DNA of 30,691 nucleotides, from positions 1 through 30,691 of the forward strand of contig JBDSIW010000190.1 of assembly GCA_039917795.1 (NCBI GenBank). The letters are read 5' to 3'. The notes under the pieces are model-generated. The model had not been told where the DNA came from. It saw only the letters and a list, made by a program, of their open reading frames with translations, and made no database searches. Numbering within the stretch: position 1 is the first letter of the stretch; the number at the start of each line of letters is the position of its first letter. Shown here piece after piece: positions 4,332 to 30,691 of this stretch. Position numbers and translations under genes: made by a program. The stretch comes from Verrucomicrobiota bacterium. Lineage in GTDB: Bacteria; Verrucomicrobiota; Verrucomicrobiia; Limisphaerales; CANJXF01.

Positions 4332-5777
4332 ATGATGCGAATGCTTTGCCAGAAACCCGGGGTCGTTATCTGCATCCTCATGAACCTCACGATGAGCCAA
4401 TCAAAATATCAAACACCGGAAATCAAACTCACGGTTCCGTCCTCCATCCTGGATTCTTCGGGCGAGGAAAAGCAGGTCACGCGCGGTCCCGGCGGACGAA
4501 TCCTCACCAATACCCGAGTTTGGTCTCCGGACGGAGAATGGATCGTTTACGATACGCGCAGCGATGCCGCGGGCGAGGGTTTCAACGGTGACTTCGTTCG
4601 CATGGTCAACGTGCGAACTGGCGAAGTGCGCGACTTATACCAATCGAAAAATGGTGCGCACTGCGGCGTGGTGACATTTCATCCGCGCGAAGAAAAAGTC
4701 GTTTTCATTCTCGGGCCGGAAAACCCGACGCCCGATTGGACGTATGGAATGTTCCATCGCCAGGGTCTGATCGTGAGCGCGAAGAGTGATGCCGGGATCA
4801 ATCGTGCCATTAACCTCGATGCGCGCGACCTGACGCCGCCCTTTACGCCCGGGGCTTTGCGGGGCGGTTCGCATGTTCACGTGTGGGACGCAGCGGGAGA
4901 CTGGGTGAGTTTTACCTATGAAGATCACCTCCTGGCACAATTCAAGGAGGCGACAGCGCAAAACGATATTAATCTTCGCAACGTCGCGGTCAGCTTGCCG
5001 GGTCGAGCAGTGCGGGTCAGCAGAGATCACCCCCGAAATCACGATGGTGCGGCATTCAGTGTCGTGGTGACGCGGACGACGGCCCATCCCAAGCCGGGCT
5101 CGGACGAAATCAAGAAGGCCTACGAGGAAGCTTGGGTGGGGGAGCGGGGTTACGTTCGACGAGACGGAACGCGTCAACGTCGCGCCTTGGCCTTTCAAGG
5201 CGATGTGTTGACTGAGGATGGGAAAACAATTTCGGAAGTATTCCTGGTCGATTTGCCCGACGATCTGACGCATCCGAGCGAAGGTCCTTTGGCTGGAACC
5301 GAAACAAAAATGCCTTGCCCGCCGAAAGGTTGCGCCCAGCGTCGGCTCACTTTCACGGCGAAGCGAAAATTTCCCGGCTTGCAAGGTCCGCGCCAATGGC
5401 TGCGCAGTTCGCCGGACGGATCGCACATCGCATTCCTGATGAAAGACGATGAAGGCGTCGCGCAATTGTGGACCGTTTCGCCTAACGGCGGGGAACCGAA
5501 ACAAATAACACGAAACGAATGGGGTATCGCGTCGTCATTCACCTGGAGTCCCGATGGAAAGCGACTGACGCACGTGTTGGACAATACCGTTTGCGTCACC
5601 GAGTTGGCTGCGGGAAAAACCATTCGCCTGACGCCGCGCACAGATGACGCGACCGCACCGCGATCCGAAGCCTGCGTGTTTTCTCCCAATGGAAAACAGA
5701 TCGCCTACCTGCGCCGGATCGTGGACGCGGGCCAGGTCTCCAACCAAATCTTCGTGGTCGCTGTGGCGAATCCGTGA
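4332..5777 (+). CDS. yidR: DUF3748 / YidR-like TolB-type beta-propeller protein
   Basis: LTNTRVWSPDGEWIVYD, GPENPTPDW, DARDLTPPFTPGALRGGSHVHVW, PGSDEIKKAYEEAWVG, QRRLTFT, IAFLMKDDEGVAQLWTVSPNGGEPKQIT closely follow E. coli YidR as I recall it. The start is uncertain (4332, 4380 or 4392). Confidence 0.85.
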   Translation: MMRMLCQKPGVVICILMNLTMSQSKYQTPEIKLTVPSSILDSSGEEKQVTRGPGGRILTNTRVWSPDGEWIVYDTRSDAAGEGFNGDFVRMVNVRTGEVRDLYQSKNGAHCGVVTFHPREEKVVFILGPENPTPDWTYGMFHRQGLIVSAKSDAGINRAINLDARDLTPPFTPGALRGGSHVHVWDAAGDWVSFTYEDHLLAQFKEATAQNDINLRNVAVSLPGRAVRVSRDHPRNHDGAAFSVVVTRTTAHPKPGSDEIKKAYEEAWVGERGYVRRDGTRQRRALAFQGDVLTEDGKTISEVFLVDLPDDLTHPSEGPLAGTETKMPCPPKGCAQRRLTFTAKRKFPGLQGPRQWLRSSPDGSHIAFLMKDDEGVAQLWTVSPNGGEPKQITRNEWGIASSFTWSPDGKRLTHVLDNTVCVTELAAGKTIRLTPRTDDATAPRSEACVFSPNGKQIAYLRRIVDAGQVSNQIFVVAVANP

Positions 5778-5802
5778 CGCGCCCTTCTGTTTGTATTTAC
5801 CA

Positions 5803-8800
5803 ATGAAAAAATTCTCTCTGATGGTTTTCCTGGCGGTCGCACTTCGAGGAGCGAGTTCAGCGGAAGCCGCGCTCACGGCTGCTCCAGCCGAATATGAACT
5901 GTTGGCCCATACAAATTTGGTCGCGTGGTGCATCGTTCCATTTGACGCAAAGAAACGCGGGCCCGAGGAGCGCGCGACGATGCTGGAGAAACTTGGCTTC
6001 CGGTTTTTCGCCTACGATTACCGCGCGGAACACATTCCCACGTTCGACGCCGAAATGGACGCGCTGCAAAGGCACGGAATCCAATTGACGGCGTGGTGGT
6101 TTCCGGGGGTGATGAATGACGAGGCCCGGCTCATCCTCGACGTCCTGCATCGACACAAGATCCGCGCGCAGCTTTGGGTGACGAGCGGGGGCGCGCCCGT
6201 AAAGTCCGCCGCGGAACAAAACGCCCGCGTTAAAGCAGAAGCGAAAAACATCCAGGCGATTGCAGAAGCGGCGGCGAAAGCGGGTTGCACCGTCGCGCTC
6301 TACAATCACGAGAACTGGTTCGGCGAACCGGAAAACCAGATTCAGATCATCGAGCAGTTGAAGCGCGATGGCGTGACGAACGTGGGCATTGTTTACAACC
6401 TTCATCACGGACACGATCACGTCGATCGACTGCCCGCGTTGTTGCAGCAAATGAAGCCTTACTTGCTTGCGCTCAACCTCAATGGCATGACCAAAAACGG
6501 CGACCAGCTTGGGAAGAAAATTTTACCGCTCGGGCAAGGCGAACTCGATTTGAGTTTGCTCCGGATGATTCGCGACAGCGGCTGGCGCGGCCCGATCGGC
6601 TTGCTGAATCACACCGATGAAGATGCCGAGGCGCGCCTGCGCGACAACCTCGACGGTCTCGATTGGCTGGTTCGGCAAATCGATGGCCAGCCGCCAGGGC
6701 CAAGACCCGTTCCGCGCAGCTGGCATGAACCCGCACCGCCCGGTTCGCCAAAAAAAACCAGCTGGCAGGTTTCTCTCGCACCCGCATTTAGCCAGGCGCT
6801 CAGCGGAGGAATTATGTTCGAGGGCAAACCCGAATATCGTGCGCGGCCCATCACGATCGAATGCCGCGCGAGACTGGACGGCTTTTCCAGATTCAATATT
6901 CTCGTGGCGTCCGACACGAAAGCGTCCGCTGAACATTGGGAACTTTATTCTTTCGCGGGAACGGGCGCTCTCAGTCTTTACCAACCCGGGCGCGGCGGAA
7001 ACGTCAGTGCTGAGATCAATATCTGCGACGGCCAGTGGCATTATCTCGCCGCGATCATCGAAGAGAAACGTGTTCGGCTTTTTGTGGACGGCAAGCTTGT
7101 GAAGGACGCCGTCGCGACTCCGCTGACCGGCACGCCGATTCCCGGTGGCTTCGCCATTGGCACGCTGGTCGAGGGCGGCATCGGTTGCGATGGGCTGGTG
7201 GACGACGTCCGTCTTTCGCGCGGCGCACGGGAAATCGTCAGCGTGCGGAATAATCCTTTGGCCCGCGACGATCAAACGATCGGGCTCTGGAACTTCGACG
7301 ATCTAAAACCTTCAACCTCGGGAGAGCTCGATCCGTGGGCGATTGAGAACGCCCACGCCCGCGCGGCCTTGCCGGAATTTCAGGAAATACCAGCCGCCAC
7401 ACTGGACGAGCTCACGCCAGCGCAAGATGTACCGGGGACGGGAACCATCACGAACTGGCACCGCTCACTCGGGGACGCAACCTCCAGTCGCTTCTCAGCG
7501 TTAAACCAGATCAACAGCGAAAATGTCCACCGCCTGGAAGTCGCGTGGACCTACCACTCGAAAGACGGGACCGGGAACATTCAGTGCAATCCAATCATCG
7601 TGAATGGCGTTATGTTTGCTCCGACGGCGGGACATTTTGTGGTCGCGGTCAACGCCGAAACGGGGGAGGAGATTTGGCGCTTCAAGCCGGAAATAAAAAC
7701 GGGCGCAATGCGGCAGGAGGATCCACCCGCCCGGCGCGGCTTGATTTTTTGGCCCGGCAACAACAAGGATTCGCCCAGAATTCTTTTCACTAGCGGCAAC
7801 TGGATTTACGCGCTGGATCCAAAAACTGGGAAGCCAGTGGAAGCGTTCGGCGACAAGGGGCGCACCTTTTTGCCCGCGGGCGGAACAGTGGCGGGGGCAA
7901 TTTTTAAAAATTTTCTCGTCGTTCCAGGATTCAATCGCGACGTGTTCGGCTACGACGTCAGGTCTGGCGAACTGCTTTGGACATTTCACACCATTCCGCA
8001 TACGGGTGAGTACGGTCGAGAGACCTGGAGCGGGGCGGGGGAGGGCGCGAACTGCTGGGGTGGCATGGCGCTGGACGAGCAGCGCGGGATTGCATTTATT
8101 TCCACGGGTTCACCCAAGCCGAATTTCACGGGCGGGTCTTATCGCGGTGAGAACATTTTTGCCAATTGTCTTCTGGCCCTCGATGTCGCGACCGGAATAC
8201 GGCTCTGGCATTTTCAGGAAATCCGCCACGACATTTGGGACCTGGATATTCCGGCACCGCCGAATCTCGTCACCCTCACCCGCGAGGGAAAGCGCGTGGA
8301 TGCCGTTGCCCAGGTCACCAAGCTGGGGAACACGCTCCTGCTCGACCGATTGACGGGCAAACCGATTTTTCCCTTTCGTCTCCGGCGCGCGCCCACTTCA
8401 AAATTGCCCGGCGAATGGACTGCGCCTTATCAACCGGACGTGCAAATTCCCGAGCCGTTTGCGCGGCAGGAATTTTCGACCCGCGAAGTGAGTCAGCGCA
8501 GCGACGAAGCACGCGAATACGTTGGAAAGCGTATCGCCAGCGCCAACTTCGGCTGGTTCGAACCATTCCAGGAAGGCAAAGCGACGGTGCTCTACAACAT
8601 TCATGGCGGAGCAGAATGGACGGGGGCCGCGTTTGATCCAGGCAGCGGTTTTCTCTACGTGAGCGCGAACGAAATTCCATGGGCAATCACGGTTTTTCGC
8701 GATGATCCGGAGCTGTCACGGGATTCAGCTGCGCCTACGGCTGGCGAGAAGATTTATCAGCAAACCTGTGGTCCCTGTCACGGGGCCGATCGGATTGGTC

Positions 8801-9432
8801 TGGGCGTTGCGCCGCCTTTGCGCGGACTGCGTCATCGCTTGAAGGAGCCAGAGGTCCTGGCAATCATGAAGTCCGGCCGGAACCTCATGCCCGCGGCGCC
8901 GGCCTTGAGCGACATCGACAAAAAGGCGTTGATGGATTTCTTGTTTCTGCGCGATCGTCCGCTCGGAAAGGAAACTGGAACCCGACCGGAGCGCCCGGCC
9001 TATACGTTTAACGGCTACCCGAAGCTCCTCGATCTTGATGGCTATCCCGGAAACAAACCGCCTTGGGGGACGCTTAATTGCATCGACTTGAACACGGGAA
9101 AAATCCGTTGGAAAATTCCGTTGGGCGAGTATCCCGAACTGACTGCCCAGGGAATTCCTCAAACCGGAACCGAAAATTTCGGCGGCGCCATAGTTACGGC
9201 GGGCGGACTGGTTTTTTGCTCGGGAACAAGGGACCGGAAAATTCGCGCGTTCAACAAAGAGAACGGCAAGGAATTATGGTCGCACACGCTCCCGCTGCAT
9301 GGCACGGCGATCCCGGCTACCTATGAAGTGAATGGAAGGCAGTTCGTTGTTCTTGCCGCGACGGGCGGCGGCAAACTTGGCGGTCCCACCGGCGATGCTT
9401 ATGTCGCGTTCGCCCTGCCGCGAAAACCATAG
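5803..9432 (+). CDS. Exported multidomain quinohemoprotein: divergent xylose-isomerase-like TIM barrel + LamG/ConA-like domain + PQQ glucose-dehydrogenase-type propeller with inserted cytochrome c
   Basis: ATG 5803 gives signal peptide MKKFSLMVFLAVALRGASSAEA (1209 aa). TIM barrel ~5915-6675 (ALYNHENW, ILPLGQGELD). Pro-rich linker. LamG ~6820-7290 (DGQWHYLA, LFVDGKLV, GLVDDVRLS). PQQ region (FSALNQINSENVHRLEVAWTY, ANCWGGMALD, LWHFQEIRHDIWDLDIPAPP, PWGTLNCIDLNTGKIRWKIPLG, GGAIVTAGGLVF, TYEVNGRQFV). Heme motif CGPCH at 8767-8781. Confidence 0.88.
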   Translation: MKKFSLMVFLAVALRGASSAEAALTAAPAEYELLAHTNLVAWCIVPFDAKKRGPEERATMLEKLGFRFFAYDYRAEHIPTFDAEMDALQRHGIQLTAWWFPGVMNDEARLILDVLHRHKIRAQLWVTSGGAPVKSAAEQNARVKAEAKNIQAIAEAAAKAGCTVALYNHENWFGEPENQIQIIEQLKRDGVTNVGIVYNLHHGHDHVDRLPALLQQMKPYLLALNLNGMTKNGDQLGKKILPLGQGELDLSLLRMIRDSGWRGPIGLLNHTDEDAEARLRDNLDGLDWLVRQIDGQPPGPRPVPRSWHEPAPPGSPKKTSWQVSLAPAFSQALSGGIMFEGKPEYRARPITIECRARLDGFSRFNILVASDTKASAEHWELYSFAGTGALSLYQPGRGGNVSAEINICDGQWHYLAAIIEEKRVRLFVDGKLVKDAVATPLTGTPIPGGFAIGTLVEGGIGCDGLVDDVRLSRGAREIVSVRNNPLARDDQTIGLWNFDDLKPSTSGELDPWAIENAHARAALPEFQEIPAATLDELTPAQDVPGTGTITNWHRSLGDATSSRFSALNQINSENVHRLEVAWTYHSKDGTGNIQCNPIIVNGVMFAPTAGHFVVAVNAETGEEIWRFKPEIKTGAMRQEDPPARRGLIFWPGNNKDSPRILFTSGNWIYALDPKTGKPVEAFGDKGRTFLPAGGTVAGAIFKNFLVVPGFNRDVFGYDVRSGELLWTFHTIPHTGEYGRETWSGAGEGANCWGGMALDEQRGIAFISTGSPKPNFTGGSYRGENIFANCLLALDVATGIRLWHFQEIRHDIWDLDIPAPPNLVTLTREGKRVDAVAQVTKLGNTLLLDRLTGKPIFPFRLRRAPTSKLPGEWTAPYQPDVQIPEPFARQEFSTREVSQRSDEAREYVGKRIASANFGWFEPFQEGKATVLYNIHGGAEWTGAAFDPGSGFLYVSANEIPWAITVFRDDPELSRDSAAPTAGEKIYQQTCGPCHGADRIGLGVAPPLRGLRHRLKEPEVLAIMKSGRNLMPAAPALSDIDKKALMDFLFLRDRPLGKETGTRPERPAYTFNGYPKLLDLDGYPGNKPPWGTLNCIDLNTGKIRWKIPLGEYPELTAQGIPQTGTENFGGAIVTAGGLVFCSGTRDRKIRAFNKENGKELWSHTLPLHGTAIPATYEVNGRQFVVLAATGGGKLGGPTGDAYVAFALPRKP

Positions 9433-26816: not shown

Positions 26817-26892
26817 TGGTGGAGCCTATCGGGTTCGAACCGATGACCCCCACAATGCCATTGTGGTGCTCTACCAACTGAGCTAAGACCCC
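26817..26892 (-). tRNA. tRNA-Ala (anticodon GGC)
   Basis: The reverse complement GGGGTCTTAGCTCAGTTGGTAGAGCACCACAATGGCATTGTGGGGGTCATCGGTTCGAACCCGATAGGCTCCACCA (76 nt) folds as a cloverleaf. Anticodon arm CCACA-AT GGC AT-TGTGG, G3:U70 alanine identity pair, encoded CCA. Confidence 0.98.
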
Positions 26893-27034: not shown

Positions 27035-27487
27035 TCATTTAAACGCATCCGGCGGAGGAGCCTGGTTGATGACGAGCCAATAGTATCCGAGTTGCCCGAT
27101 GATTTCGCGAAATTCGGCAAAATCGATTGGCTTCTGAATATAGCTGTTCACCCCTAACTGATACCCTTCCACCATGTCGCGCTGTTGCTTGGAAGATGTC
27201 ATTACCACGACGGGGACTGCCTTCGTGCGCGGGTCCTGTTTTATGGCGCGAAGAACTTCCAAGCCATCCACCTTCGGCAATTTGAGGTCCAGCAAAACGA
27301 CGCGAGGGGGATTCTCGAAGCTGCGGCCGTCGTGGCCATTGCGGCAAAACAGAAAATCCAACGCTTCTTCTCCGTCGCGGGCCACGTGAATTCGATTGGC
27401 AAAGTTGTTTTTCTTCAGGGCGAAGAGCGCCAACTCCAAGTCGTCCGGATTGTCTTCGACCAGCAAAATCTCGATTGCGTTGTTCAT
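27035..27487 (-). CDS. Single-domain response regulator (Rcp1-like receiver)
   Basis: ILLVEDNPDD, VLLDLKLPKVDG (phospho-acceptor Asp), VVVMTSS, GVNSYIQKPIDF. No output domain. Confidence 0.93.
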   Translation of the reverse strand: MNNAIEILLVEDNPDDLELALFALKKNNFANRIHVARDGEEALDFLFCRNGHDGRSFENPPRVVLLDLKLPKVDGLEVLRAIKQDPRTKAVPVVVMTSSKQQRDMVEGYQLGVNSYIQKPIDFAEFREIIGQLGYYWLVINQAPPPDAFK

Positions 27488-27506
27488 GGTATTTTTCGGG
27501 CGGCGG

Positions 27507-29702
27507 CTAGAGTGGGTGCATTCCTTTCAAAGTAAAATAAAAAGTCGCGCCCTTGTCGAGTTCTGCTTCAACCCAAATCCTTCCTTCGTGCAGTTGGATA
27601 ATGCGTTGCACTGTTGCCAGACCCACGCCTGTTCCCTCGAAATCTTCGGCGCGATGCAACCGCTGAAACACCCCGAAAAGTTTATCGGCGTACTTCATAT
27701 TGAAGCCGACGCCATTATCCCGGATAAAAATTGCCAGCTCGCGGCCGACCCTTTTTTGCCCGATCTCGATGACCGCTTTGGGGCGAGTGCGGGTGTATTT
27801 AACCGCGTTGGAAAGCAAGTTGATGAAAACCTGCTTGATCAAACCTGGATCACATTTCAAGGAGGGCAACGCCTCAATCGACCAATTGATCTCTCGACTT
27901 TCATATTCCGGCTTCAGATCGGCAACCACTTCCTCCACTACTGAATTCAAGTCTGTCTCGTCACGGGCGATCTCGACGCGTCCGACCCGGGAAAGATTCA
28001 GCAGATCGTCCACCAACTGGCCCATGTTCTGGACACCGCGCCGGATGCGTTCGATGTAGCGGCGATTCCCGGACGAAATCGTTTCCTTCAATTCGTCCTC
28101 CAAAAGCTGGGCGAAAGCGTCGATGTGCCGGAGCGGGGCGCGCAAATCGTGGGACACCGAATAAGTGAACGCTTCCAGTTCCTGGTTTGTCGCGGCCAGT
28201 TCCGCGGTGCGCTGAATGACGCGTTCTTCCAGTTCCGCGTTCAAGGTGCGAATTTCTTCCTCGGCCCGAATTCGATCCGAGATATCGCGCGAATTAGCCG
28301 AGACACCAATCGTGGCTCCTTCCGCATTTCGAATCGGCGAGAACGTAATCGACACAAAGAAAAAGCTGCCGTCCTTCCGCACCCGCCGGGTTTCGAAGTG
28401 CTCGATCTTTCCTTGTTGCACTCGTTGCAGCGCCTGCACTTCCTCATCGTAGCGGTCCTGTGGAACAATCAGCGTGCTTTTGGAACCGATCGCCTCTTCG
28501 GCGGTGTAACCGAACATTCTCTCCGCGCCCACATTCCAACTTACAATTGTCCCGAATAAATCTTTTCCGACAATTGCGTCATCCGAAGACGAAACGATCG
28601 CGGCCAGCAGCGACAGTCCTTCAGCGGCCTCTTTGGCCTCGGTGACGTCCAGCGTCACCCCTAACAGGCGCACGGCTTTCCCACGCTCGTCGTAAAGTGC
28701 GTTCCCGCGCGAGGCCAGATAATGATAGGATTTATCCGGCCAAAGAACCCGGTACTCCGCCACGAAGTCAGTCTTTTCAGCCAGCGCGCGGTTCGCTAAT
28801 CGGGAGACGGCGGCACGATCCTCGGGGTGAAGATAACCAAGAAACGTTTCAAATCGCCCGTCGAAATCGCCTCGTTTTCGGCCAAATAATTTGTAAAGAA
28901 AATCGTCCCACTCCAGAAAACCGGTTTGCACGTCCCAATCCCACGTGCCGGTCTCAGAGGCTTCCAACGTCAGGCGCAGGCGCTCTTCGCTTTGGCGCAG
29001 CGCGGCATCCCGATCATGAATCTGCATGAGCATGTGGTTGAACGAATCCGTAAAGCTGCCCAGTTCATCCGTGCCGTATTTGCGGGCGCGAACCAGATAA
29101 TTCTTGTTCACCGAAACGGACTTGGCCGTCTCTGCCAGCTCCAATATGGGTTCCGAAATTCCCTTTTGCAGCCAATTGGAGAGCGCGAGCGCAATGAGCA
29201 GCGCCCCGATCATCACCCCGCCCACAATTCCCCCGTAGAGGACCACGCGGCTGTACATAGGGGTGAGGTCCAATTTCAAAAAGAGCGTTCCTTGCCACGC
29301 GTCCCCCTCTCGAACCGGCAAGAAAATCTGAAGCGCGTTTTTCTCGAAACGGTGCCCCTCGGTGCCGGGCTTGGCGGGAAAATCCGAGCGCGGTTGCTCA
29401 GAGGGATACCGGGCCAGTTTGGATCCGTCTTTCTTGTACAGGCAAGCCATCACGATGGACGGTTCAGCTTCGAGCTTGGAAAGAATTTCAGCGCCGACTT
29501 TCTCGTTATCGAAACTCAGCGCGGAGGTACTGTTGGCCGCGATGATCTGGGCTATAGTTGCGGCGTTCTGGAGGATCGTCCGGTGGAAGGTAAAAAGCTC
29601 GTAAGTGATCAGGGTGCCGGAAGTCAGGAGCAACACCACTGTGCTGGTGAGCATGATGACGTAAACCAGCTTGCGTTTGATTGGGACGTTCCGAAGATTC
29701 AT
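27507..29702 (-). CDS. Membrane sensor histidine kinase: TM - CHASE8 (YfiN-type periplasmic domain) - TM - HAMP - PAS - PAS - HisKA - HATPase
   Basis: TM1 LVYVIMLTSTVVLLL. Periplasmic SALSFDNEKVGAEILSKL...ACLYKKDGSKLARY. TM2. HAMP ISEPILELAETAKSVS...DELGSFTDSFNHML. Two PAS domains (GTWDWD...LHPEDR; DAIVGKD...SWNVGAERMFGY). H-box YSVSHDLRAPLRHI (His codon 28151-28149), N-box NLLSNAVKY, DNGVGF, GTGVGLA. Confidence 0.93.
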   Translation of the reverse strand: MNLRNVPIKRKLVYVIMLTSTVVLLLTSGTLITYELFTFHRTILQNAATIAQIIAANSTSALSFDNEKVGAEILSKLEAEPSIVMACLYKKDGSKLARYPSEQPRSDFPAKPGTEGHRFEKNALQIFLPVREGDAWQGTLFLKLDLTPMYSRVVLYGGIVGGVMIGALLIALALSNWLQKGISEPILELAETAKSVSVNKNYLVRARKYGTDELGSFTDSFNHMLMQIHDRDAALRQSEERLRLTLEASETGTWDWDVQTGFLEWDDFLYKLFGRKRGDFDGRFETFLGYLHPEDRAAVSRLANRALAEKTDFVAEYRVLWPDKSYHYLASRGNALYDERGKAVRLLGVTLDVTEAKEAAEGLSLLAAIVSSSDDAIVGKDLFGTIVSWNVGAERMFGYTAEEAIGSKSTLIVPQDRYDEEVQALQRVQQGKIEHFETRRVRKDGSFFFVSITFSPIRNAEGATIGVSANSRDISDRIRAEEEIRTLNAELEERVIQRTAELAATNQELEAFTYSVSHDLRAPLRHIDAFAQLLEDELKETISSGNRRYIERIRRGVQNMGQLVDDLLNLSRVGRVEIARDETDLNSVVEEVVADLKPEYESREINWSIEALPSLKCDPGLIKQVFINLLSNAVKYTRTRPKAVIEIGQKRVGRELAIFIRDNGVGFNMKYADKLFGVFQRLHRAEDFEGTGVGLATVQRIIQLHEGRIWVEAELDKGATFYFTLKGMHPL

Positions 29703-30304
29703 TGCAGGCTCGGGTCGGTCGAAACCACGACTGCAACTTGAAGCAATTTCGAACTGATGCCGAGGTTGGCCGTCTTGGCCGCCTCGAGGTTGATGCGCAA
29801 ACGAATCTTATTGTCAGCGGTGAAAAAACGGATGATTCCTCCCTGCAACGTAAAATTATCAATGTCACTCACCGTCAAGATGCTTCGCTCCTTCATCGCC
29901 GCGAGGATGGATCTCACGCGATCTTTTTCCGAGGCACCCACAAAAAGCACATGGCAATCCTTGATCTCGTTGACGCTCTTAAAATAGCGAATTTCCAGCT
30001 TTCGGTTTTTTACGACTTCGCCTTCGACCGTCTCGTTCAACGTTTTTCCAAAGGGATCATTGCCGAGAATGCCGATGACAATCGGGCTCCGCGCTTCGAC
30101 AAACGCGTTGGACGGCCAATTGACATACTGGACGAAATTATAGAGATAAACCGCTTTGATTTTGTACTCTGGCGCAGTTTCCTGGGCTCGGGCCGTCGCG
30201 CCGAAACCCATCCAGAGCAAGACCACCATGAGGATGCGCCAATAAAGGATGGTAATCTGCAATTGTCGCAGATCCAAGCGGTTTGATTGTTTCAAAACGA
30301 CCAC
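29699..30304 (-). CDS. yfiR: YfiR-family (DUF4154) periplasmic protein
   Basis: Signal peptide ending ...ATARA|QE. EYKIKAVYLYNFVQYVNWP, IVIGILGNDPF, CHVLFVG, ILTVSD, GGIIRF, INLEAAKTANLGISSKLLQVA are hallmark YfiR-family segments. ATGA overlap with the kinase start. Start GTG 30304 or ATG 30229. Confidence 0.9.
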   Translation of the reverse strand: MVVLKQSNRLDLRQLQITILYWRILMVVLLWMGFGATARAQETAPEYKIKAVYLYNFVQYVNWPSNAFVEARSPIVIGILGNDPFGKTLNETVEGEVVKNRKLEIRYFKSVNEIKDCHVLFVGASEKDRVRSILAAMKERSILTVSDIDNFTLQGGIIRFFTADNKIRLRINLEAAKTANLGISSKLLQVAVVVSTDPSLQ

Positions 30305-30691
30305 GTCACCTTTCCGTAAACGCTGCGTTCGATTTGATGTTGGTTCAAGTTGGGATAAGCGAATTGCGCCCGGTGATCGTAAAGGAGATTCTGCCCGACC
30401 AAGGAGAACTCAAGGTTTCTGGTCGCATGCCAGCCGACGCGAACGTCGAGCCCGAAATAGCTTGGAACGTAGCCGACATTTCCGGCTGAGATAAATGTCA
30501 AGCGGTCCACCCAACGCAAACCGGCATCCAGTTCCACGCGCCCGGGCAATTCCATAGACGAGCGAATCGAGAACTGCTGTTCCAGGCCAGAGGTTTCAGC
30601 GATCGCCTTCCCGACATCCACCTTGCCGGGCTTTTCGCGAATGTTTTCTTCAATGAACGAGTAGCCGCCGCGCAGCCGCCACCACGGAGAA
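30292..30691 (-). CDS. TonB-dependent outer-membrane receptor, C-terminal part (5' end outside window)
   Basis: The frame is open to the window edge (SPWWRLRGGYSFIEE...). Amphipathic beta-strands, YVPSYFGLDVRVGW, FSLVGQNLL, and terminal ERSVYGKVTWSF with the C-terminal Phe barrel signature. Confidence 0.85.
   Translation of the reverse strand, partial: SPWWRLRGGYSFIEENIREKPGKVDVGKAIAETSGLEQQFSIRSSMELPGRVELDAGLRWVDRLTFISAGNVGYVPSYFGLDVRVGWHATRNLEFSLVGQNLLYDHRAQFAYPNLNQHQIERSVYGKVTWSF

Follow-up and report, generated by a model that had tools for sequence, protein, structure and literature searches.

A TonB-dependent receptor, a YfiR-like protein and a CHASE8 histidine kinase encoded in one operon of a Verrucomicrobiota bacterium

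How might a TonB-dependent receptor in the outer membrane be wired to a histidine kinase in the inner membrane? The question is raised by a 30,691-nucleotide stretch of DNA from a Verrucomicrobiota bacterium (GenBank assembly GCA_039917795.1, contig JBDSIW010000190.1), referred to here as the window, which is the entire contig C190 of an assembly of 616 contigs and 76.6% completeness. At positions 27035-30691 the window carries a genuine minus-strand operon of four genes, encoding a TonB-dependent receptor, a YfiR-like protein, a CHASE8 histidine kinase and a receiver. A sequence-only reading had interpreted these genes as a rewired YfiBNR system, in which ligand binding or import at the receptor sequesters or releases YfiR and thereby couples an outer-membrane transporter to a phosphorelay. 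Our analysis partly supports this interpretation as a whole. On profile scores and gene order, the locus is a member of a cassette that is already described by a linked trio of NCBIfam models and that recurs in hundreds of species across many phyla, and how its parts may be connected is weighed below against the anatomy of the proteins and the variation of the cassette.

The operon and its protein families

The four genes follow one another, in the direction of transcription, as listed here:

30292..30691, minus strand: 3' end of a TonB-dependent receptor gene of the TOL_0244 family (open reading frame 30292-30690, the last 132 codons), open at the contig end.
29699..30304, minus strand: YfiR-like periplasmic protein of the TOL_0243 family, 201 residues, GTG start, PF13689.
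27507..29702, minus strand: sensor histidine kinase, 731 residues, with a first transmembrane segment, a periplasmic CHASE8 domain, a second transmembrane segment, HAMP, two PAS domains, HisKA and HATPase_c.
27035..27487, minus strand: stand-alone Rcp1/CheY-like receiver, 150 residues, PF00072, without an output domain.

The genes had been described as tightly coupled, and the junctions read from the sequence confirm this. The TGA stop of the receptor gene (30292-30294) lies within the YfiR-like gene, whose GTG start at 30304 results in a 13-nucleotide overlap (an alternative TTG start at 30295 would produce a TTGA overlap with the receptor gene). The YfiR-like and kinase genes share an ATGA overlap (29699-29702), and a gap of 19 nucleotides separates the kinase stop from the receiver ATG.

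As the receptor gene runs off the window, we turned to another contig of the assembly, C160, whose first 417 nucleotides overlap the end of the window at 96% identity (window 30275-30691 against L003 (C160) 1-417). The overlap begins within the start region of the YfiR-like gene, and its mismatches are bunched in about 140 nucleotides. The break between C190 and C160 inside the receptor gene probably reflects strain heterogeneity that disrupted the assembly, and we take C160 to be the putative continuation of the window or a strain variant of the same locus. It supplies the missing part of the receptor:

L003:18-1976 (contig C160), minus strand: full-length receptor, 652 residues, with Plug 66-173 (PF07715) and barrel (PF00593).

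The 132-residue fragment encoded in the window is 95% identical to the C-terminus of this protein. Profile searches of the assembly found a single copy of each cassette family. On its 5' side the operon ends at a divergent TPR gene, which lies upstream of the receptor on C160. Directly downstream of the receiver, a tRNA-Ala(GGC) gene on the same strand (window 26817-26892, minus strand), preceded by a promoter-like TTGACA-16-TAAATT site at 26936-26909, marks the 3' boundary.

The cassette proteins were assigned with the linked NCBIfam models NF053590 (TOL_0244 receptor), NF053591 (TOL_0243 YfiR-like protein) and NF053592 (sensor histidine kinase, YfiR-like protein-associated), which serve annotation and take their names from locus tags of Thalassolituus oleivorans. 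The full-length C160 receptor scores 774.4 bits on NF053590 (cut-off 645); the 132-residue fragment, which alone has no Pfam match, aligns to positions 481-604 of the same model with 86.8 bits. For the YfiR-like protein the score is 177.6 bits on NF053591 (cut-off 125), and residues 7-229 of the kinase reach 226.2 bits on NF053592 (cut-off 194), with 229.7 bits in the genome search. With all three proteins above the cut-offs and the gene order matching, we find no difference between the trio and the present locus. The models with adjoining numbers, NF053587, NF053588 and NF053589, describe unrelated families. The sequence-only reading knew of no experimental characterisation of such an arrangement, which agrees with our literature search insofar as we found no experimental study of a receptor/YfiR-like/CHASE8 kinase arrangement and one proteomic observation only; the three models show, however, that the arrangement had already been recognised. 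The window therefore does not present a new architecture, and its value is that of one clean, complete example of a known cassette.

The second gene had been identified as YfiR. Its product matches PF13689 (DUF4154/YfiR) at 2.2e-46 and has a probable signal peptide with cleavage after ARA, residue 40. On the canonical YfiR model NF053586, however, it scores 33.9 bits and thus falls below the cut-off of 85, and the mature protein has one cysteine, located in a CHxLF motif, in place of the two disulfides (Cys71-Cys110 and Cys145-Cys152) that serve folding and redox sensing in Pseudomonas aeruginosa YfiR (PMC4887326). Because it fails NF053586 and both disulfides are missing, the protein is, by its sequence, a member of a sister family of YfiR and not YfiR itself; the earlier identification holds for the domain and, as described below, for the fold.

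Analysis of the kinase with Pfam gave the following domains:

29298..29585, minus strand: CHASE8 periplasmic sensor domain, residues 40-135 (PF17152 at 1.1e-12).
29013..29165, minus strand: HAMP domain, residues 180-230 (PF00672, 25.0 bits, at the cut-off).
28281..28916, minus strand: two cytoplasmic PAS domains, residues 263-349 (PAS_3, PF08447, 2.1e-30) and 366-474 (PAS, PF00989, 4.8e-24).
27525..28175, minus strand: kinase core, with HisKA at 510-573 (PF00512, 2.3e-13) and HATPase_c at 618-726 (PF02518, 1e-22).

Hydrophobic segments at about residues 11-37 and 162-187 flank the CHASE8 domain, and the catalytic motifs are intact, with the H-box His518 and the N and G boxes in the translation. 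Sequence searches gave no solved homologue of the first 240 residues, which include CHASE8. The receiver matches PF00072 at 4.5e-21 and contains E11, D12, D67, T97 and K119, which provide the acidic pocket, phospho-Asp, Thr and Lys of an intact receiver. Its closest solved relatives are the single-domain regulators 5brj and 5ic5 (1e-40), and it also resembles the phytochrome partners RcpA, RcpB and Rcp1 (1e-22). Phosphotransfer from this kinase to this receiver is predicted from their adjacency, both here and in the mapped loci described next.

Conservation and variation of the cassette

A species-level genome scan with the closer YfiR-like alignment set returned at least 592 confirmed relatives, and neighbourhoods were examined for the best 80 of these. 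The 80 loci span Verrucomicrobiota, Gemmatimonadota, Bacteroidota, Acidobacteriota, Gammaproteobacteria, Planctomycetota, Nitrospirota and Myxococcota (at least eight phyla). Downstream of the YfiR-like gene comes a CHASE8-type sensor in 78 loci, and in 64 a receptor with 37-57% identity to the present one lies directly upstream on the same strand, so that the order is receptor, YfiR-like protein, CHASE8 sensor. A more divergent receptor precedes the YfiR-like gene in a further two loci, four have a divergently oriented receptor, and the receptor also adjoins the YfiR-like gene upstream in most of 40 loci from relatives. The sequence-only reading had suspected that similar clusters occur in other genomes and would have fallen had receptor and yfiR not been neighbours there; the clusters were indeed found and the adjacency is conserved.

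We searched 41 genomes from the genus, family and order of this bacterium; the YfiR-like family scored above the cut-off in 22 of them, with as many as four or five matches in one genome. In the reverse direction, about 27 of the 35 strong TOL_0244-family receptor matches in these genomes lie beside a YfiR-like match. An even sample of 150 high-quality genomes from the phylum contained 11 with a match at E <= 1e-30 and 10 with a score above the cut-off, concentrated in one family. Carriers of the cassette live in soil, the rhizosphere, fresh water and the sea, belong to many phyla and often hold several copies per genome; cultured ones include T. oleivorans MIL-1, Terrimonas sp. R1 (L097) and Telluribacter sp. 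SYSU D00476 (L112). Searches of 14 control genomes, among them Escherichia coli, Bacillus subtilis and Caulobacter, did not find the cassette, which may explain why it has gone unstudied. Public sequencing runs containing at least part of 27035-30691 comprise only four DNA runs from one rhizosphere/root metagenome study, which may be the source sample, and no RNA run is listed among them.

The claim that a YfiR/CHASE8-HAMP input is joined here to a histidine kinase rather than to a GGDEF domain, evident from the Pfam domains above, extends to the homologues. All 32 downstream sensors from relatives have CHASE8, HAMP and HATPase_c, 11 are hybrid kinases and none of the 32 contains GGDEF. To survey the wider neighbourhood, 120 loci were fetched for clustering of open reading frames, of which 89 could be mapped around a called YfiR-like frame. 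The only other recurrent neighbours were a single-domain receiver (30 of the 89 mapped loci) and extra kinases. The clustering of the 120 loci revealed no recurrent TonB/ExbBD, binding protein, ABC or other inner-membrane transporter, OmpA-like protein or sigma/anti-sigma pair. Copies within the genus share 85-91% identity in the receiver and 71-72% in the kinase core. Identity drops to 59-67% in the receptor, 51-66% in the YfiR-like protein and 56-65% in the CHASE8-HAMP region, from which we conclude that the input side evolves faster than the output side.

A few loci depart from the common order. Phenol_MetA_deg-type barrels have neither a plug nor a TonB box, and such a barrel stands in for the receptor immediately upstream of the YfiR-like gene at two unrelated loci, one in a Nitrospiria metagenome-assembled genome (L135:4759-5847, plus strand) and one in a Verrucomicrobiota relative (L043:1366-2538, plus strand). 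The L135 sensor is CHASE8-PAS-GGDEF-EAL rather than a kinase, in this one distant locus. In loci L064, L068, L092 and L109 no outer-membrane gene adjoins the YfiR-like/kinase pair. The first of these, in a Steroidobacteraceae metagenome-assembled genome, has a FIST (NosP-like) gene directly upstream of the YfiR-like/CHASE8 kinase pair (L064:4301-5491, plus strand) and no adjacent receptor. Legionella Lpg0279, a negative regulator encoded upstream of a kinase, was considered as a characterised analogue of the cassette and rejected, as it is a FIST/NosP protein and not YfiR. The vpvABC genes of Vibrio cholerae were likewise set aside, since a paper on them describes VpvA and VpvB as hypothetical proteins and draws no connection to YfiR. 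In a second subtype of the cassette, a divergently transcribed receptor is followed by a large immunoglobulin-like-repeat protein of up to 1202 residues (L023:1019-3652, L128:2-3607 and L116:2822-3457, all minus strand).

The existence of several loci without a receptor is compatible with there being no relay at all, with the YfiR-like protein and the kinase sensing the envelope or periplasmic state alone, much as YfiR responds to redox and envelope stress, and the receptor being co-expressed or a regulated output. The operon contains no DNA-binding regulator, which is in keeping with such co-regulation and makes any output indirect, and P. aeruginosa YfiR is likewise able to act independently of YfiB (PMC4887326). 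It is hard, however, to square mere co-expressed cargo with a receptor family that, in the relatives searched, hardly occurs away from YfiR-like genes. Furthermore, the gene order is fixed with the receptor first, and a YfiR-like protein with one cysteine is without redox-sensing disulfides. We therefore regard co-regulation without a relay as improbable.

From the outer membrane to the kinase

In the AlphaFold 2 model of the full-length C160 receptor (pLDDT 91.1, pTM 0.89), the signal peptide leads through a short linker of low confidence and a short strand (residues 53-55) to the plug and then the barrel, for which DSSP assigned 23 strand segments, one probably a split strand, compared with the 22-strand barrel of TonB-dependent transporters. 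Neither Pfam nor the model of this full-length copy revealed an STN or other N-terminal signalling or globular domain. Foldseek matched the model to ordinary transporters (BtuB with a TM-score of 0.89, Cir with 0.82 and FepA, which together span 0.7-0.9, and PirA), which at just 14-18% identity do not allow the substrate to be inferred. Mean identity of 68 homologues to the query receptor is 73% in the plug, 64% in a pre-plug segment of roughly 20 residues and 47% in the barrel. The conserved pre-plug segment with its short predicted strand at residues 53-55 is a candidate TonB box. Judged by eye, an 'LSLEELM.IEV'-like segment is also present in a divergent receptor subtype adjoining YfiR-like genes, and one other receptor of this genome, a single case, has a classic TonB box without an 'LSLEELM.IEV'-type motif.

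On the periplasmic side, the model of the YfiR-like protein (pLDDT 92) returned P. aeruginosa YfiR as all of its top 15 Foldseek matches in the PDB (E about 2e-7, TM-score 0.69-0.75 by target length, 14-18% identity), followed by one-lobe substrate-binding proteins, including L-Trp-bound 3lft. A single-sequence search of the PDB with the protein gave no match; the family profile was required and matched PDB YfiR at 1.5e-10. P. aeruginosa YfiR represses the YfiN sensor via the periplasmic domain of the sensor, and vitamin B6 and L-Trp bind in its pocket L166/I169/V176/P178/L181 (PMC4887326). Around this pocket the surfaces that YfiR presents to YfiB and to YfiN overlap, and YfiB inserts an extended N-terminal loop into it (PMC4887326). 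Within the TOL_0243 family, conservation is highest at an ISSKLL motif that aligns with the pocket block.

A one-lobe binding-protein fold in the YfiR-like model, together with a receptor that is a canonical transporter by predicted fold, could also indicate an accessory role in uptake, whereby the YfiR-like protein binds or shuttles the receptor's substrate for transport and the kinase just tunes expression. Such a role does not fit well with the lack of a recurrent inner-membrane transporter nearby, with the CHASE8 sensor being a more constant partner (78 of 80 loci) than the receptor, or with the homology of the YfiR-like protein to a known sensor repressor, and we give it very little credence.

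The precedent of the YfiB loop in the YfiR pocket suggests a more direct connection by analogy, the aligned block being the best conserved here. A ligand-loaded receptor would expose a periplasmic element, such as the candidate TonB-box segment near its N-terminus, that captures or releases the YfiR-like protein and de-represses the kinase. Consistent with such sequestration, translation of the receptor and YfiR-like genes is coupled and the two genes are neighbours in 64 of 80 loci, the receptor family co-occurs near-exclusively with YfiR-like genes, the plug and pre-plug segment are more conserved than the barrel, and the 'LSLEELM.IEV'-like segment recurs in the divergent subtype. However, strong plug conservation is usual for TonB-dependent receptors, the present receptor is without a signalling extension, the barrel family found in its place at L135 and L043 lacks a plug and a TonB box, and four loci have no adjacent outer-membrane gene. 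On balance we consider direct sequestration rather unlikely.

A lead to the ligand comes from shotgun proteomics of T. oleivorans MIL-1, the supplement of which holds the only expression data found for the TOL_0243/TOL_0244 family (PMC6304351). The TOL_0244 receptor was about sevenfold up on the n-C28 alkane, with mean spectral counts of 0.82, 7.25 and 1.52, where 7.25 is the n-C28 value and the other columns are n-C14 and Tween 80 in unconfirmed order; TOL_0243 was detected on n-C28 only, which was not significant (PMC6304351). The same study compares TOL_0244 with OmpS (B5T_01485) of Alcanivorax dieselolei, reporting 40.3% similarity (PMC6304351). Secondary sources describe OmpS as an outer-membrane alkane sensor with a TonB-dependent-receptor domain that starts a signalling cascade. 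The n-C28 response and the MetA-type barrels together suggest a hydrophobic ligand without showing one. That TOL_0244-type receptors are true outer-membrane sensors, in which a perhaps long-chain hydrophobic ligand gates direct capture or release of the YfiR-like protein at the periplasmic face and so switches the CHASE8 kinase, strikes us as decidedly doubtful.

The four genes form a self-contained signalling operon that links envelope to cytoplasm. Over direct capture we tentatively favour a relay, which accounts for the comparative data at least as well: a ligand would pass through the receptor and be sensed in the periplasm. We hold this at somewhat less than even confidence. TonB energy at the receptor, acting as an entry gate, would import an extracellular compound, possibly hydrophobic, into the periplasm. 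There the YfiR-like protein would bind the periplasmic CHASE8 domain of the kinase and set its activity, as YfiR does with YfiN. The imported compound would act on the YfiR-like protein or on its complex with CHASE8 and change kinase activity, which would in turn alter phosphorylation of the Rcp1-like receiver. The ligand would thus be a signal and not a nutrient.

Several observations lead us to this preference. The receptor has no signalling extension, and because no inner-membrane transporter, binding protein or TonB/ExbBD recurs in the 120 loci, the destination of the ligand seems to be the periplasm. Replacement of the receptor by Phenol_MetA_deg barrels implies that the conserved feature is an outer-membrane portal and not a TonB-box switch. 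The YfiR fold is itself a one-lobe periplasmic binding-protein fold, which favours a ligand being read there. We also count for the relay the conserved ISSKLL block, through its alignment with the ligand pocket of YfiR, and the n-C28 proteomics of TOL_0244 and TOL_0243.

Other observations weigh against the relay. The translational coupling and near-exclusive co-occurrence of the receptor and YfiR-like genes are also expected of a direct physical pair, and conservation of the pocket residues may reflect no more than their place in the fold core. Binding of the YfiR-like protein to CHASE8 is borrowed from a homologue at 14-18% identity. The barrel substitution concerns two loci only, with weak Pfam matches of 31.6 and 25.0 bits. 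The proteomic lead comes from one study of a distant organism, in which the TOL_0243 signal was not significant. A relay, with its hypothetical ligand, would reach beyond the anatomy of the cassette and the conserved linkage of its genes. Finally, the affinity of P. aeruginosa YfiR for small molecules is merely in the ten-millimolar range (PMC4887326).

The remaining genes of the window have housekeeping, sugar or fatty-acid functions and are unrelated to the cassette. Among the sequences unrelated to it is a 1262-residue open reading frame at 5644-9432 (plus strand), an unusual fusion that unites a TIM barrel like that of xylose isomerase with a laminin-G-like domain, a PQQ beta-propeller dehydrogenase and a cytochrome c domain.

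Comparison with known signalling systems

TonB-dependent receptors signal inward through sigma/anti-sigma pairs, and the sequence-only reading had drawn a parallel to FecA/FecR/FecI. The likeness lies in a TonB-dependent receptor that is genetically tied to a signalling pathway, and it is weak: the full-length receptor is without an STN domain, the operon contains neither an anti-sigma factor nor an extracytoplasmic function (ECF) sigma factor, and sigma/anti-sigma genes are not recurrent nearby.

The closer resemblance is to YfiBNR (TpbB/DgcN) of P. aeruginosa and E. coli and to HmsCDE of Yersinia. These systems likewise place a PF13689 YfiR-fold protein beside a CHASE8-HAMP membrane sensor and are organised in three tiers, from the outer membrane through the periplasm to the inner membrane. 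They differ in that the outer-membrane partner of YfiBNR is the OmpA/Pal-like lipoprotein YfiB and its output a GGDEF domain, whereas here a TonB-dependent receptor and a histidine kinase with a receiver take these positions, and in that the YfiR-like protein fails NF053586 and is without both disulfides. As had been noted from the window, yfiB is missing: none is present in the operon between the divergent TPR gene and the tRNA, and no OmpA-like cluster is recurrent in the 120 loci. Since the defining features of canonical YfiBNR and of Fec-type signalling were each looked for and found lacking, the locus belongs to neither. By analogy, it may operate as a variant of YfiBNR in which the outer-membrane partner is another one and the output is a phosphorelay.

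What the cassette appears to offer is a route from a TonB-dependent receptor to a two-component phosphorelay via a YfiR-type periplasmic protein, a route that is widespread and for which we found no experimental description. If sensing by receptor-gated capture were true, it would be a third mode of TonB-dependent cell-surface signalling, across many phyla, next to sigma/anti-sigma transducers and hybrid two-component sensors. The ligand and wiring of the cassette, once worked out, would establish a new class of histidine-kinase input and take the YfiBNR paradigm beyond c-di-GMP.

The analogy behind the relay that we prefer comes from other systems. In Bacteroides polysaccharide-utilisation loci, SusC-type receptors feed hybrid two-component sensors, and LuxP-LuxQ and TorT-TorS are pairs in which a binding protein acts as co-sensor of a kinase. 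Common to these systems and to the proposed relay is an imported or periplasmic ligand that is read by a periplasmic sensor domain or by an accessory protein controlling the kinase. The protein families are unrelated, however, and the cassette differs further in being without SusD, a DNA-binding output or glycan-degrading genes.

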